IMG/VR virus record: IMGVR_UViG_2724679237_000005
Location: 44,631 to 108,630 of that record
DNA length: 64,000 nucleotides
From: a virus
Taxonomy: Duplodnaviria > Heunggongvirae > Uroviricota > Caudoviricetes
Reading direction: 5' to 3' (one strand)
Part shown: piece after piece, positions 14,435 to 46,400 of the stretch
How positions within the stretch are numbered: the stretch's first letter is position 1
How the letters are laid out: each line of letters starts with the position of its first letter
Program-made: the position numbers and the translations under genes
The notes under the pieces: model-generated
The model's input: only the letters and a program-made list of their open reading frames with translations
The model's database searches: none
Told to the model about the DNA's origin: nothing

Positions 14435-14529
14435 GCGTTTTTCCTTTGTTTTCTAATGAGCGTTCAACTTCTTATATAAATATATCATTAACTATCGTAA
14501 GTGGTTACTTATCATTAAGGCTGTTTTGT

Positions 14530-20770: not shown

Positions 20771-20857
20771 TGGCGGAGAGTAATGGAATCGAACCATCAT
20801 CGTTTGCACAATGGGACGGTTTTCAAGACCGCTTGAGCACCATGCTCCCTACTCTCC
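20771..20857 (-). tRNA. tRNA-Ser (anticodon TGA)
   Basis: Hand-folded: acceptor GGAGAGT/ACTCTCC, anticodon arm GCGGT-CTTGAAA-ACCGT, long variable arm, T-loop GGTTCGATTCC, 3' GCCA encoded. Confidence 0.75.
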
Positions 20858-21177
20858 AGCTATTGTGATGGTCGGTGCTGAACTCCGACACAGGGTTGTA
20901 GCAAGCCCCGCAAAGCGCGCACTACTGTAGTTGCGGCACATCAGCCTGTGCATTCATCACAATGGTAAGATCACTACCTTTCGACCAGTCATTGTGCACA
21001 TGAACGACGATTAACCGTAATGATATTATCGTTGTGTTGTGAAGCCAGATGCTTATCTTCTGGTTGCTTCAAAGAGCTGCACTTCCTCACAACGGTAAGA
21101 GCACTGGTCTGACTCTATCGATTTACGGCCTTGTGGGTCAGTATCGCCGATTCGCCCAATGCTCTTACCTGTTGTGT

Positions 21178-21253
21178 TGGTGCCGGTTAACGGACTTGAA
21201 CCGCTGGCCATTCGCTTACAAAACGACTGCTCTACCAACTGAGCTAAACCGGC
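21178..21253 (-). tRNA. tRNA-Thr (anticodon TGT)
   Basis: Hand-folded: acceptor GCCGGTT/AACCGGC, D-arm GCTC-AGTTGGTA-GAGC, anticodon loop TTTGTAA, T-arm AGCGG-TTCAAGT-CCGTT, CCA encoded; one mismatch at top of anticodon stem. Confidence 0.7.
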
Positions 21254-21257
21254 AATT

Positions 21258-21344
21258 TGGTGGGGAGTGATGGAGTCGAACCACCCGAGTCGCCATGACA
21301 GTAGATTTACAGTCTACACCGCTACCTCTACGGACTAACTCCCC
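21258..21344 (-). tRNA. tRNA-Tyr (anticodon GTA)
   Basis: Hand-folded: acceptor GGGGAGT/ACTCCCC, anticodon arm GTAGA-CTGTAAA-TCTAC, long variable arm, T-loop GGTTCGACTCC, CCA encoded. Confidence 0.8.
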
Positions 21345-21349
21345 TAAAT

Positions 21350-21424
21350 TGGCGATGGTGGGTGGATTCGAACCACCGACCAGTTGGTTAACAGCCAACT
21401 GCTCTACCGCTGAGCTACACCATC
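21350..21424 (-). tRNA. tRNA-Asn (anticodon GTT)
   Basis: Hand-folded: acceptor GATGGTG/CACCATC, D-arm GCTC-AGCGGTA-GAGC, anticodon arm GTTGG-CTGTTAA-CCAAC, T-arm GGTGG-TTCGAAT-CCACC, CCA encoded. Confidence 0.8.
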
Positions 21425-21609
21425 AATTCAGCACTGCCAGTATTTATTACTCAACAGTGCCAATCGCGACGGTTTAGTTTCTGCCAGGAAACGCACCGCT
21501 ACTTGCACTTTTCGTTAGTGCCAGACGCTTTCGACTTCGCTCAATAGTAGAAGGCAAAATCTTTAAGTAGATGATGTTTCTGAGGACAGCACCTACTTTG
21601 TAATTTATA

Positions 21610-21632
21610 CAATGTGATGTATGGAATCATTT
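21610..21632. repeat. copy B of 23-bp repeat CAATGNGATGTATGGAATCATTT
   Basis: Shares 14 bp (GTATGGAATCATTT) with the right arm of the 18784-18816 palindrome and 22 of 23 bp with copy C. Confidence 0.6.
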
Positions 21633-21639
21633 GTTGTGA

Positions 21640-22160
21640 AAACAGGCACCAATGGCAACAGTGGTTAAACCTACACAACAATCCCGTCTTCACAACGTTG
21701 AGGCCACTACTCCGATTGAATGTTTGCCCAACATGTTACATATCAACGCTCGCCGGTATCTCTGTGAATAGAACCTTAGAATTGATAAAAATGTAATGGC
21801 CTCAACGTTGTGTGCTGGCTAACCATACCAGCCGGGCTACGTCGCCGCTTTTTAACCCAGTATAAACGACATAATTGAACAAAATGACGTAACAGGATGG
21901 GCGGTCAGTGGCTAAGAATCCGGGAGTCATATGGAGTTGAAAATATACCAACCGCCCATTCTGTTACTTCATCGGAGGGAACATGAATGTTCCCTCCTGC
22001 GTTCTGCAATCACACTCGCTCAGTGTGTCCCATTTCGGTAACGAGGCTGGAAACTGACCTCGCTGGTGTTTGGCTTATTAGGCTACTGCCAGATAGACTT
22101 CTTCGTTTGCACTTGTATTTAAGTTCAAACAGTCGCGTCTCAACGAAAACAAAGTCATCT
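21640..22160. other. ORF-poor, highly structured ~0.5-kb region; candidate noncoding RNA or cis-acting element
   Basis: No ORF with a credible start; inverted repeats 21691-21705/21798-21812 and 21897-21905/21951-21959; perfect hairpin GGAGGGAACA-TGAA-TGTTCCCTCC at 21975-21998; ATAAGTA-type motif at 22172-22193. Confidence 0.4.
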
Positions 22161-22202
22161 TATACATAAAAGATAAGTAAGTAAACACTTATCGCTGTGT
22201 TT

Positions 22203-22493
22203 TTATTCGGTTGTGACTTTTTTGATCAAGGCCACTCTACGACTAGGTGTTCTTGTGATGGTGGCAGTGAATCGTTTCGCTTGGATAGTAATGGTTTCGT
22301 TCTCCTTAAGTTGCCCGTAGCGAGTTTCAACCAGGGTGCCAAGACGCCACAGACCATCATCGATACGTTTATGACTAGCAAATTTAATCAGCAACAGTTT
22401 TACGACTAACTGACCTACGTAAAAGGCGAATGCGACTCCGGCCGCTAAGAAATAGGTGGCCAACCACCATTCCCAAGAAGTTAACTTGCTCAT
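22203..22493 (-). CDS. small membrane protein (96 aa)
   Basis: N-terminal TM helix WWLATYFLAAGVAFAFYVGQLVV; start overlaps stop of upstream small ORF (ATGA). Confidence 0.45.
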   Translation of the reverse strand: MSKLTSWEWWLATYFLAAGVAFAFYVGQLVVKLLLIKFASHKRIDDGLWRLGTLVETRYGQLKENETITIQAKRFTATITRTPSRRVALIKKVTTE

Positions 22494-22642
22494 TTTTTCA
22501 CCTTTGTTTCATGAACTACCCGATACACGCGCTTTCCGATGCACAGTGTTTTGGTTTTAAGTTCCTGCTTAATCAAATCACGACAGATGCCGAAGCCGAT
22601 AAGGAAGCCACCCATAAAAGCCAATGAGATGTATGGAATCAT
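22490..22642 (-). CDS. small membrane protein (50 aa) starting inside repeat copy C
   Basis: ATG at complement 22640-22642 within the repeat (MIPYISLAFMGGFLIGFGI...); stop overlaps next start; below ORF-track cutoff. Confidence 0.3.
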   Translation of the reverse strand: MIPYISLAFMGGFLIGFGICRDLIKQELKTKTLCIGKRVYRVVHETKVKK

Positions 22643-30958: not shown

Positions 30959-31065
30959 CTGGTAGGTAGTTACTTACTTATCACAATGAGCGGATGATAG
31001 CGACTGGTGGCAGTTTTTGGAAGTGGAAACGGAAGGGAGTTGTTCTGGTGGTGTCTTTTAAAAGA

Positions 31066-44600: not shown

Positions 44601-46400
44601 GATGCGAACGCGCATAGGTTCGAGATCTGGTTCTGTAATTGTCCAGACACCGTTCAAAACAGGCGTTTCCGCTGACGACAGGGCTTTTGAAAACGTAACC
44701 TTTGTTATGTTTTCGCCAGTTTCAAGAACATCGCGTTCAACGATTTTGCCTTCCTGATTCAATATCCGAATAAAGCTGCCGCTTTTAGCTAACGACACAG
44801 GCGCATCGAGAGTGATGCTGTTTTTGGTAAACTCCACAATTCGACCGGAGTTACGTTTACCTGCACGATATTTGTTCTGAATCAGAACGGTTTCACCAGG
44901 CATCAGAAATGAGGCGTCTAAGCCGGCAGTAAATGTAATTACATCCGACTCCATTCTGGCGGTATACAAAAGCCACAAACCAACTCGGTGAGCCTGGCCT
45001 CGGCTTGTACATCCAAATGCTACGACTTCTGTTTTACGCTCACCATAACGGCGCATTGCGTCCTGATCTTCAACGTATTCGATGTTTTGCTTATAACCGT
45101 CCTCCTTGTTGTTGTAGGTTACGAGCGCAACGGATGGGCGATCTTTACGCGCAGAACCTTTATAGGTAAACAGTCCATCTTTGACGTTGGAGTTGGTAAA
45201 CATCATTACCGGATCTGATGGGCTATCCTGCATGATGTTAACCATGCCACCAGCCCAAAACACCATGCCGCGGAATGCACCGGCAATATCCTGAATTAAT
45301 CGGTATGCGTCTTGTCGACTGGTGATCTGCGTATTGATTGCAAAGCGTTTCTCTTTACCCCCAAAGCCATCATCGACCTCTTCGTCACAATATCGACCAA
45401 TCTGGTAGAGCTGGCCGAGGTCAATCATGGATTCCGACACAAATTGCCCAAGACCATACCGAGTATTGGTAAGCAAATCGTAGAGAATCCACGCAGGGTT
45501 TGAAGAAGACAACAGCTTAAAAGTACCGTCCCATACGCCGACATAAGTATTGGTGTATTCGTTGTAGTTTGACGGTACTCGGATTTTGATACCGCGCACC
45601 AAATACGAACGGGAAGGCATTGTGCTACCAAACTGCTCTGAATTGACCTTCAAGCCAACAAGAGCAGAGTTAGGGTAGTTCATTGGCGTGTCGACAATCT
45701 CACCTATGGAATCAACCCATGTGTCGTTGTAGAGGTACTGGCTACTGTTATCATCTGTAAGACGAATCACCCTAACCTTGTATGCACGACCAGGCTTAGG
45801 TAGTTTCAGCTCATAGCTACGGTAATACACGCCTGTTTTCTTTGCCGTTAGCGTGATATCAACGCTTTTTTCACCTTCAGCGACCACATCTACAAATGTT
45901 GAGTCGCCATTTGCTATCTGGAACTTGTACTCAACAGTCGTACCGTTCGTGTCACCAGTTTTTTTATCTATGCTTCGCAAAGAAGGAAACTTCATGATGA
46001 CACGAACCCGATCAGCTTCATCGTTATCGATTGAAACCGTTACATAATGTGTTTTTTTTAACTGGATATTGACGGATTTAGGCGTTTCAACGAAATCAAA
46101 GCCAGACATTGGAGTCTGGTCTTGTGAACCGTCGCGAAAATCCCATGTGATTCCGCTGAAGTTGGAGGAACCGTCTTCATTTACAATCGGCAGATCGTCG
46201 ATAAAAATAGATCTTGCGCCATTTACTAAGCCGCCAATTACCCCTTCCCCAAGAAGATCGAGGATAGCGGCCATTGCACGAGAATTTACGGTATCGTCGG
46301 CTTCAACCGGTGTACGGCTGGAGCTTTTGCTGCTTTTTTTACCACCCGCACCGGCAATAAACAGCGGTAGCTTTTTCTTCTTGAACTGTTCCATGTTCAA
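41667..46400 (-). CDS. J: central tail fibre / tip attachment protein J-like
   Basis: Strong similarity to lambda J core (ALVGLKVNSEQFGS, AFGCTSRGQAHRVGLWLL, KYVAGIALGIDT...SQFLV); contains a run of 33-aa coiled-coil repeats. Confidence 0.8.
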   Translation of the reverse strand: MNMEQFKKKKLPLFIAGAGGKKSSKSSSRTPVEADDTVNSRAMAAILDLLGEGVIGGLVNGARSIFIDDLPIVNEDGSSNFSGITWDFRDGSQDQTPMSGFDFVETPKSVNIQLKKTHYVTVSIDNDEADRVRVIMKFPSLRSIDKKTGDTNGTTVEYKFQIANGDSTFVDVVAEGEKSVDITLTAKKTGVYYRSYELKLPKPGRAYKVRVIRLTDDNSSQYLYNDTWVDSIGEIVDTPMNYPNSALVGLKVNSEQFGSTMPSRSYLVRGIKIRVPSNYNEYTNTYVGVWDGTFKLLSSSNPAWILYDLLTNTRYGLGQFVSESMIDLGQLYQIGRYCDEEVDDGFGGKEKRFAINTQITSRQDAYRLIQDIAGAFRGMVFWAGGMVNIMQDSPSDPVMMFTNSNVKDGLFTYKGSARKDRPSVALVTYNNKEDGYKQNIEYVEDQDAMRRYGERKTEVVAFGCTSRGQAHRVGLWLLYTARMESDVITFTAGLDASFLMPGETVLIQNKYRAGKRNSGRIVEFTKNSITLDAPVSLAKSGSFIRILNQEGKIVERDVLETGENITKVTFSKALSSAETPVLNGVWTITEPDLEPMRVRIVNIAQGETPGSFDITAVENNPSKYEAIDNGATLIPQNTTVLDPTYSKPSNLQITEGTYLSSPGNLSVKLTATWEGKSPEYWISWRRSDENNVSNWQSARVTEEQYEIVNVAENGRYDFQLYAVSFNGKKTEIISTVYQVLGTMTPPDAPTSLTAVGDYRNVILNWVNPDSVDLDHINVYASQTNNLDTAKLIAESASTTFTHAGLGDSETWYYWVRASNKRGMLSPPNSNLGTEATTRDVLSFLAGKITSSELGQALLEDINSKASQEAVDELNEHINQSVESLEGSVNDVKEDIAELDKQFSDNLAGFEIKFNERSDALENAQTELKGEVSATIDKVNEAFEKIDATDAAIVEIENTVSEHDKALANTVEAIKAARDEAAALIAKESEARVEGDAANAKQLEVLQSTVEESSAAVEEMKKTVAEVDRASAELTTNIEALAKTNIDLALRQDEDQHKQMVNNAKIATTQKTFADDMSAMATKVEEIRVEIGEDIKASILEESTARADGDEALAKRVTQLQSKFEGDISAAISTEQEARTSADEALTTQITQLESKVSNDIVAAIKEEQEARATEDSALASQITQLQAKVDDDISAAIRSEQEARASGDSALAKQINQLQSKVDGDISAAITQEQEARASADQALSREINSLRAQTGTDIAAAVAVETKARTDADSALSTQISSLTAKANDLEASLARETTARADGDTALTKEVSSLKAQTAKDISAAVAVETQARTDADSALSSQITKLTSQYKEDIKAAVATETKTRTEQDAALATQITNLESQTAANISAAVTTETTARTQADNALSGRIDTLKAEVDGNTATIQQQATAIADTNKKVSTAWTLKMETSTSGGQKYVAGIALGIDTTGLSQFLVQADRFGLVNSVNGKITTPFVIENSIAYMNGAYIKDGTITNAKVGDLQSTNFVSGRSGWRFGKNGTLEINGNSGGNGRLVINGQRIDVYDDNNVLRVRIGLL

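Follow-up and report, generated by a model that had tools for sequence, protein, structure and literature searches.

The 64,000-nucleotide (nt) stretch of phage DNA analysed here (positions 44,631 to 108,630 of IMG/VR record IMGVR_UViG_2724679237_000005; the whole stretch is called the window) contains, in a gap at 21425-22200, a gene for a structured RNA that is read from the minus strand, is about 0.5 kb long and runs roughly from 22150 to 21640. The gap had been flagged for its inverted repeats in a sequence-only reading, and our results support its view of the gap as a structured RNA; what had been missed is the nature of that RNA. Sequence comparison places the conserved core in the 5' 155 nt (22150-21998), not in the flagged hairpins, and this core resembles the message half of transfer-messenger RNA (tmRNA, or SsrA), with a resume context, a ten-codon tag frame and pseudoknots. 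Judged on its sequence, the module fails as a tmRNA proper, having no transfer RNA (tRNA)-like domain, but the features that define the message half are present in it. On balance, we lean towards a tmRNA-derived coding piece that has no acceptor domain and acts on host trans-translation.

Over the gap region the window is ~99% identical to Escherichia phage Cyrano, CMS-2020a and many ~110-kb E. coli plasmids, and 78-80% identical to Salmonella phage SSU5, to phage-plasmids of Klebsiella, Enterobacter and Citrobacter and to Yersinia pestis pMT1. These identities identify the window as an SSU5-like E. coli phage-plasmid. Annotated relatives, without exception, leave the interval from tRNA-Asn to the first small gene featureless or place one unsupported 'hypothetical protein' in it.

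A tmRNA-like module and its tag frame

The module has the following parts, with positions given in the window and columns in an alignment of 22 sequences:

21998-22150, minus strand: module 1, the tmRNA-like coding module as a whole (GUUUUCG, resume context, tag frame, helix 5, PKa and PKb hairpin)
22144-22150, minus strand: 5' motif GUUUUCG, exact in 59 of 61 aligned sequences and one base different in the other two
22078-22110, minus strand: tag frame GCA AAC GAA GAA GUC UAU CUG GCA GUA GCC UAA, read as ANEEVYLAVA* (second in-frame UAA at 22075-22077)
22063-22092, minus strand: helix-5-like stem CUGG...CCAG (UGGC/GCCA inside) with the stop codons in its loop; columns 81-84/107-110 paired in 21-22 of 22 sequences
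22028-22062, minus strand: H-type pseudoknot PKa, stem 1 CGAGG/CCUCG and stem 2 UCCA/UGGG, with compensatory changes
21999-22027, minus strand: PKb hairpin CACACU/AGUGUG, helix paired in 100% of cells, with compensatory changes in two pairs

No start codon with a Shine-Dalgarno sequence was found in the tag frame. It is preceded instead by an A-rich leader ending in ...AAAUACAAGU|GCA, with U at position -5 and A at position -4. Variation was measured over 30 distinct module versions: A-4 is present in all of them, U-5 in 27, and the resume codon is GCA in 29 and GCT in one. U-5 and A-4 are the counterparts of U85 and A86 of E. coli tmRNA, which have an established link to resume-codon selection. 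The context also matches the 'resume consensus' of ARAGORN, and around this codon the phage sequence is identical to the Rfam consensus for permuted tmRNAs, AUAAAUGCAAACGA.

The tags are ten codons long, have the general form AN(D/E)xx(Y/F)LAVA and end at UAA(UAA). The E. coli tmRNA (locus L075) likewise has ten codons, ANDENYALAA, followed by UAAUAA. Outside the window's own lineage the tags read:

ANEDTYLAVA: SSU5 and pMT1
ANDNQYLAVA: Klebsiella plasmids
ANDNVFLAVA: Felix-like phages
ANEEMYLAVA: HK620 and siphophages
ANDNTFLAVA: CBA120, where it is written GCU AAU GAU...
ANDEQFLAVA or ANDDQFLAVA: prophages
ANDTQYLAVA: an Enterobacter plasmid, the last Ala being GCG

Eight of the ten third codon positions vary, compared with four of the 20 other positions (p = 0.0027). 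Synonymous codons are exchanged (GCA/GCT, AAC/AAT, GCC/GCT/GCG, and TAA/TGA at the stop) and the amino-acid replacements are conservative (D/E, Y/F). Because the variation lies mainly at third positions, the pattern suggests that the frame is decoded. A reading of the region as an ordinary small open reading frame (ORF) was rejected: the 36-amino-acid ORF with a GTG start at 22078-22188, which contains the tag, has an unconserved upstream part, suffers insertions and deletions among relatives and overlaps the promoter described below.

Three helices covary in the 22-sequence alignment, namely both stems of PKa and stem 1 of PKb. PKa columns 124/143 are AU in 11 sequences, GC in eight and CG in three, columns 125/142 are AU in 12 and GC in seven, and the copy in EntCP102 adds further compensatory changes, with both PKa stems altered together. 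None of 500 shuffles reached the observed covariation score, and sliding the partners out of register lowers the paired fraction from 81% to 21-45%. The helix-5-like stem shows little covariation because it hardly varies. In other phages the PKb loop pairs downstream to form a second pseudoknot (GCCC/GGGC, GCCCAC/GUGGGC, GGCGGGAG/CUCCCGCC and GGCCCUGA/UCAGGGC); this stem 2 has no support within the SSU5 group, where SSU5 and Citrobacter disrupt a putative GCG/CGC stem. 

At the 5' end, GUUUUCG resembles GG(A/U)UUCGAC, the D-loop analogue of tmRNA, and with the bases that follow it resembles the D-loop analogue together with the start of helix 2 (GGAUUCGACGGG; Rfam consensus UGGuUUCGACggG); the Rfam permuted-tmRNA consensus that resembles this end is aAaUGGuUUCGACggG. 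We treat this possible homology as a lead and not as proof. The segment AGAAACUGACCAC is missing from the window, Felix-type and L034 copies, and RNAalifold gave no consensus structure 5' of the tag, in the region of pseudoknot 1 (PK1) and helix 2.

Several homology searches converge on the same interval. BLAST with the gap found matches in unrelated phages that are confined to window positions 22008-22162 and fall in unannotated DNA: Felix O1-like phages (Michonne, HY02, Sf13 and others), HK620, HK633, the Klebsiella siphophages Carvaje and KP591P3, swi2 and CBA120-like phages. A covariance model (R1) built from 18 module copies, all from outside the SSU5-like group, hits the window at 21998-22122 on the minus strand (73.5 bits, E = 1.7e-14), its sole hit in 64 kb. 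Over the 90 kb searched, the model gave one further, weak hit (E = 0.07), which falls on the tag region of E. coli ssrA.

Rfam was scanned in E-value mode on 3.5 kb and in gathering mode on the whole window, and six related loci were included. As an assignment to a known family the scan comes back negative: only tRNAs pass in the whole-window gathering scan, and the module reaches the gathering score of no model. Its weak hits are nevertheless all of one kind. The two hits inside the window gap at E up to 10 are both sub-threshold tmRNA hits, and in the six loci every sub-threshold non-tRNA hit that overlaps the module belongs to a tmRNA family, the best scores being 29.2 bits for RF04321 and 15.9 for RF00023 (gathering 47 each) and 17.3 for RF01850 (gathering 84). 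ARAGORN at an 80% threshold returns the correct tags together with spurious 5' domains and many false calls, and was not used as proof.

By BLAST, E. coli ssrA and the module are similar only over ~30 nt of the resume and tag region, which argues for an old, diverged relative and rules out a recent capture of the host gene. A fragment of ssrA left by an attachment (attP) or integration site was also rejected, as such fragments keep the 3' tRNA-like end and not the message.

Matches to the module were found in 405 phage records, in 773 PLSDB plasmids and in 258 of the 5426 complete E. coli genomes, and 256 of the 270 sites in these genomes are on plasmids. At least six phage lineages that are unrelated to one another keep the module at ~75-80% identity, and in the records listed it either carries no feature or lies beneath an unrelated one. 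A scan of genome contigs gave a single locus, in Pseudocitrobacter, and carries little information on distribution.

Its surroundings differ between lineages. Most often it heads a tRNA cluster or lies in the late leader of lambdoid phages. In Felix-like phages it lies within a cluster of more than 20 tRNAs, between tRNA-Ile and tRNA-Arg; in siphophages it is immediately upstream of tRNA-Ser, tRNA-Arg and tRNA-Met; in HK620 and the prophage loci, where no tRNA is close by, it sits between the Q antiterminator gene (with pR') and the lysis genes. This Q/pR'-to-lysis position is where Shiga-toxin phages carry tRNA genes. In the Felix O1-like loci L004 and L010, a TROVE/DUF2828 'RNA-binding protein' (Ro60/Rsr-like) is encoded at the edge of the module-bearing tRNA cluster, a neighbour that hints at wider RNA-handling functions in these islands. 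The idea that the module is a Y RNA partner of such a Ro protein was rejected, since some copies of the module have no annotated gene of this type in their vicinity and the module has a tag frame.

Our literature search, of incomplete coverage, found no description of the tag peptides or of such a phage element, and an earlier description is possible. The phage tmRNAs in the tmRNA database papers are those of mycobacteriophages and Bacillus phage G, plus a tRNA-like-domain-only gene of phage DS6A, and their 2014 survey turned up no ssrA in any further record of a virus or plasmid (PMC4131195; PMC11915505).

The gap encodes a structured minus-strand RNA

In the minus-strand order, module 1 is followed by H1, H2, a further stem, H3, a remnant ORF, tRNA-Asn/Tyr/Thr, a cassette, module 3 and tRNA-Ser. 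Conservation of the hairpins was assessed in an alignment of seven SSU5-like lineages. The features beyond the module are:

22157-22185, minus strand: sigma-70-like promoter read from the sequence, -35 TTTACT (22180-22185), 17-nt spacer, -10 TAAGAT (22157-22162)
22172-22193, no strand: palindromic operator-like motif GATAAGT-N8-ACTTATC, inner TAAGT-N4-ACTTA, overlapping the -35 hexamer
21974-21997, minus strand: hairpin H1, columns 158-168/181-191; five pairs changed on both sides, so that the stem is kept and its sequence entirely changed
21884-21972, minus strand: long hairpin H2, ~27 pairs, several of them changed from G.U to G-C in a way that fits only the minus strand
21814-21874, minus strand: stem UUAUGUCGUU/GGCGACGUAG, then hairpin GCUGG...CCAGC, columns 291-299/320-328 and 333-339/345-351
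21691-21812, minus strand: hairpin H3, 20 bp, columns 353-372/457-476, enclosing a weak T-arm-like hairpin
21541-21630, minus strand: remnant ORF MIPYI..., which duplicates the 5' end of a small membrane-protein gene at 22490-22642 (minus strand)
21178-21424, minus strand: tRNA-Asn, tRNA-Tyr and tRNA-Thr, downstream of the structured RNA
21088-21176, minus strand: cassette hairpin between tRNA-Thr and tRNA-Ser
20858-20961, minus strand: module 3, cloverleaf-like, UGUGAUG-AA-GCACAGGCUGAUGUGC...GUCGGAGUUCAGCACCGAC-CAUCACA, directly 5' of tRNA-Ser (20771-20857)

On the minus strand, the 511-nt segment 21640-22150 has a folding energy of -179.2 kcal/mol, compared with -142.0 +/- 6.5 in 100 dinucleotide shuffles (z = -5.75), and no shuffle folds as well (0/100); the plus strand gives z = -5.49. 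H2 and other stems fix the strand of the RNA as that of a leftward transcript, because their alternations between G.U and G-C pair only in the minus sense and would be C.A mismatches on the plus strand. The gene lies just 3' of a promoter-like site and 5' of four tRNA genes on the same strand. Together, the covarying helices, the strand-specific G.U pairs and the upstream promoter-like site bear out the proposal that the gap holds a structured noncoding RNA transcribed leftward, alone or with the tRNAs.

The three inverted repeats that had been noticed in the gap are all there, at coordinates correct to within 1 nt, and two are parts of larger ones. The 15-bp arms at 21691-21705/21798-21812 lie inside a repeat at 21691-21710/21793-21812 (20 nt, 95%), and the 9-bp arms at 21897-21905/21951-21959 inside one at 21884-21905/21951-21972 (22 nt, 91%). 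The perfect hairpin pairs 21974-21984 with 21987-21997, one base away from the 21975-21998 first given. All three helices are kept and compensated in SSU5, Klebsiella, Enterobacter, Yersinia and a second E. coli lineage. What did not carry over is the idea of a hairpin that hides a GGAGG-N-ATG: this sequence is specific to the lineage of the window, and the corresponding hairpins of relatives differ (GGAUAGGGCAUG..., GGUAGGGCAU...). A comparison of seven SSU5-like relatives found no position-conserved frame among ORFs of at least 35 amino acids.

In H3 four pairs change on both sides, including columns 365/464 (GC in four, AU in three), and the 21814-21874 stem region shows one compensatory change, in pTB212. 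A possible pseudoknot GGGUU/AGCCC in the latter region was read by eye. 

Transcription of the RNA is predicted to start at ~22150-22151. Stronger promoters of equal geometry lie 7-12 nt upstream of GUUUUCG in four other phages:

Michonne: TTGACA-17-TAAGAT
HY02: TTGACA-17-TATAGT
KP591P3 and swi2: TTGACA-17-TAGATT with a TG extension

The motif that had been noted at 22172-22193 is present and reads AAGTGTTTACTTACTTATC. A second copy is found at 30964 (0.02 expected), and the TAAGT-N4-ACTTA palindrome family recurs in the window at 14504, 30969, 31090, 55036 and other sites. This recurrence, together with the overlap of the palindrome with the -35 hexamer, suggests a repressor site or operator, and hence control of the RNA by a phage-plasmid regulator.

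The remnant ORF (ATGATTCCATACATC...) is a pseudogene remnant. It does not belong to the RNA module but lies where the structured region ends on its 3' side, and in SSU5 it stops after six codons (MIPYIQ*). On pMT1 (L079) the module and hairpins are kept and the distal region is replaced, the locus abutting caf1R of the F1 capsule operon.

Hairpin cassettes flank the module in the window (21088-21176, minus strand) and in loci L005, L006, L008, L009 and L011-L074. The stem of each cassette, 12-20 bp long, is conserved and covaries from lineage to lineage, and the inserts enclosed by these stems (25-110 nt) are unrelated to each other and include a canonical T-arm in some cases; a given insert can lie on opposite sides of the module in different phages. 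They may be ribonuclease (RNase) III stalks that release small RNAs, or decayed tRNA-like genes. To judge from its sequence, H3 appears to be a diverged member of the CACAAC-AGGUAAGAGCAUU.../...AGUGCUCUUUCC-GUUGUG cassette stems of other phages. Module 3 has homologues in HK620, swi2 and KP591P3, and in the alignment with them three stems show compensatory changes; it occurs in 29 of 81 loci and has no Rfam match. In phage CBA120 (L007), two tRNA-like sequences follow the module, at ~1640-1720 and 1735-1860, with T-arms GAAGGUUCGAGUCCUUC and UGGGUUCGACUCCCUA, acceptor stems of 6-7 bp and an encoded CCA; neither ARAGORN nor the Rfam tRNA model reports them, and the first has a G.A mismatch at 3:70.

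Possible action on trans-translation and rival explanations

The module comes without an acceptor stem, a CCA end or a canonical T-arm, and no CCA-terminated stem was found in 21425-22200. As for a T-arm with a GUUCRANYC loop, the window has only the weak hairpin AUGUU-GGGCA-AACAU inside H3, and canonical T-arms are confined to the downstream cassettes of some other phages. The RNA appears to start at or just before GUUUUCG, given promoters 6-12 nt from the motif in four lineages, and this leaves no room for the 5' strand of an acceptor stem. A search for a separate acceptor piece upstream, as in a two-piece tmRNA, found in the window a promoter and a protein-coding gene directly upstream; in HY02, what looks like an acceptor piece in the RF04321 hit is simply the 3' half of the tRNA that comes before the module. 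The window has no gene for an SmpB homologue.

We infer that a module of this kind engages the host trans-translation machinery. Within that statement, its use as a template is the option we favour, with somewhat less than even confidence, because the frame has the look of a decoded one and the tag preserves the residues that SspB reads, with a different end in place of the one that ClpX reads. The module RNA would be made in quantity during infection or induction, and stalled ribosomes holding host Ala-tmRNA and SmpB would switch to it in place of the tmRNA's own message; alternatively, the acceptor might be a further RNA, for example an unrecognised phage tRNA-like RNA. Proteins rescued in this way would carry (A)ANxxx(Y/F)LAVA at their C-terminus and not ...YALAA. 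The downstream hairpins probably stabilise the RNA or are processing sites that separate it from the tRNAs.

In the E. coli ssrA degron, SspB reads N3, D/E4 and Y/F7, and ClpX reads the LAA-COOH end. The module tag would retain the SspB-read residues and alter the ClpX-read end, so that rescue might proceed without destruction of the phage's truncated products by ClpXP, an outcome that would suit a phage with cut or truncated messages. Tagging and degradation by tmRNA can block the propagation of phages and plasmids (PMC6207430). Taken as a whole, the scheme of a free-standing phage tmRNA message that is decoded in trans and whose LAVA tag escapes ClpXP, a viral reprogramming of ribosome rescue, is tentative and should be regarded as possible but doubtful.

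A number of observations weigh against a coding piece that acts on trans-translation. At default settings ARAGORN calls no tmRNA, either in the window or among 70 related loci, and nothing above chance in the whole window would base-pair with the 5' 43 nt of the module. Every two-piece tmRNA of which we are aware has an acceptor 5' strand on its coding piece, unlike the module, and we know of no experiment that loads a free message-like RNA onto the ribosome in trans. The predicted effects of the tag are extrapolated from the E. coli tag. In the IMG/VR copies, codons 7-11 were fixed by the search pattern and their conservation is partly circular, the BLAST-derived copies being unaffected. The window promoter is weak, matching eight of 12 positions, below the scan threshold. 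In a near-identical phage-plasmid, NZ_CP104844.1 (L085; also H228), an ISEcp1-blaCTX-M-55-wbuC unit lies inside the module at about window position 22118, ~7 nt upstream of the resume codon, and parts the promoter from the tag; as this plasmid persists, the module is dispensable for plasmid maintenance. Finally, a Y. pestis small-RNA screen with reads mapped to pMT1 did not list the module (PMC3770706), and the published pMT1 small RNAs sR082 and sR083 map elsewhere.

The main rival is a decoy or inhibitor: an RNA that is not decoded but mimics the message and pseudoknot body of tmRNA, and lowers host trans-translation by titrating the SmpB tail, S1 or RNase R. Without an acceptor domain, direct use in tagging is hard to picture, and conservation within the module is strongest in its A-rich resume context and its pseudoknots. 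There is also a precedent in the partial phage tmRNA of DS6A, which inhibits tmRNA and is thought to titrate SmpB (PMC4131195; PMC11915505). We nevertheless consider a decoy rather unlikely, because third-position variation, conservative replacements and a maintained stop would be unexpected in a pure decoy.

Less likely than a decoy are a relic and a hidden acceptor in cis. As a relic, the module would be a decayed fragment of a captured tmRNA that now serves as a structured leader or processing spacer of a tRNA operon, its hairpins being RNase III or RNase E sites. Its place at the head of tRNA clusters, the long stems of 18-20 bp that resemble RNase III stalks and the tolerated insertional loss on a plasmid would all fit. 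Such decay is hard to reconcile with the identity kept across unrelated phage lineages, some of which have no nearby tRNA (HK620 and the prophage loci), with conservation that peaks at the resume codon and tag and not at the stems, or with a coding-like pattern of variation, and we regard it as improbable.

A complete but unusual tmRNA would draw its tRNA-like domain in cis from H3 (as a degenerate cassette homologue) or from module 3, with a processed 3' end that gains CCA. Several lineages do have a canonical T-arm (GGGUUCGAAUCCC), with a long stem closing it, within 60-120 nt of the module, and T-arm cassettes follow it in Carvaje, KP591P3, swi2, L011 and L069. ARAGORN at a relaxed threshold joins module and cassette as a 'tmRNA', the upstream cassette of the prophage type ends in ...UUUCCA directly before GUUUUCG, and in CBA120 tRNA-like genes with an encoded CCA come after the module. 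However, the cassette inserts are mutually unrelated and often have no T-arm, L013, L016 and L063 have no cassette, no G3:U70 pair was seen, and most copies have no CCA at the right distance. In the window, H3 encloses only a weak T-arm-like hairpin, and module 3 is present in just 29 of the 81 loci. A complete tmRNA in cis is thus very improbable, and neither module 3 nor the cassettes can be a universal acceptor partner, as each is present in only some loci.

A DNA-level element (origin, pac site or partition site), an alternative that the sequence-only reading had kept in play, or a small protein-coding gene would account for the inverted repeats, the intergenic position and the small ORFs of 29-60 amino acids, but is scarcely credible given strand-specific G.U pairs and compensatory changes, no conserved ORF, a module shared by phages with unrelated replication and packaging, and a locus that ISEcp1-blaCTX-M-55 splits in an otherwise intact, persisting plasmid.

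Significance and comparison with known systems

The element is spread through well-studied phages and clinically common phage-plasmids, and more than 1,000 public records carry it without a feature, unseen by ARAGORN, Rfam and PGAP. Even as a decoy or relic it would be a new, widely distributed and clearly defined RNA family that can be found with model R1. If it is decoded in trans, it would be the first tmRNA coding piece to work without an acceptor domain of its own, and it offers an experimental route to in-trans template loading and to the way phages handle the ribosome stalling that they cause. A wider translation-repair toolkit would be one reason for phage tRNA islands, and the predicted tag, a poor ClpX degron by analogy with E. 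coli, bears on the stability of phage and plasmid proteins in their hosts.

The closest known relative is tmRNA itself (RF00023, clan CL00001). The module shares with it an A-rich leader, U-5/A-4 and a GCA resume codon, a ten-codon ANDE-like tag with a hydrophobic, Ala-rich tail, stop codons in a helix-5-like loop (UAAUAA in the window) and pseudoknots directly downstream. The likeness is reciprocal, as tmRNA models hit the module best and the module model hits the tag region of ssrA. The module differs from tmRNA in having no acceptor stem, CCA, G3:U70 pair or canonical T-arm, a PK1 was not convincingly recognised, and its tag ends in LAVA whereas that of tmRNA ends in LAA. The two-piece permuted tmRNAs of alpha- and beta-proteobacteria and cyanobacteria (RF04321, RF01850) also have a separate coding piece and share the resume consensus, but their coding pieces carry the 5' strand of the acceptor at their start and pair with a second, acceptor-bearing product of the same gene; the module has no room for such a strand before its predicted start, and no acceptor piece with CCA was found upstream.

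GOLLD, ROOL and the species 1 and species 2 RNAs of T4 are structured RNAs of little-known function that lie beside or inside phage tRNA clusters and are co-transcribed with them. By general description, the module resembles them in its position in phage tRNA regions; the window RNA differs from GOLLD and ROOL in that it matches neither in Rfam at any threshold and has a tag frame, which those RNAs do not.

It is thought that a tmRNA needs its tRNA-like and message halves to be joined, covalently or by pairing. Half-tmRNAs in mobile elements or organelles nevertheless have precedents in DS6A, whose tRNA-like-domain-only gene is a partial phage tmRNA that inhibits the host tmRNA (PMC4131195), and in the tag-less tmRNAs of mitochondria and plastids (PMC4131195; PMC11915505). 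These forms keep the tRNA-like half, whereas the module keeps the message and the pseudoknots. If our reading is true, a conserved, apparently decoded message half without an acceptor would be the missing mirror image of the known partial tmRNAs.

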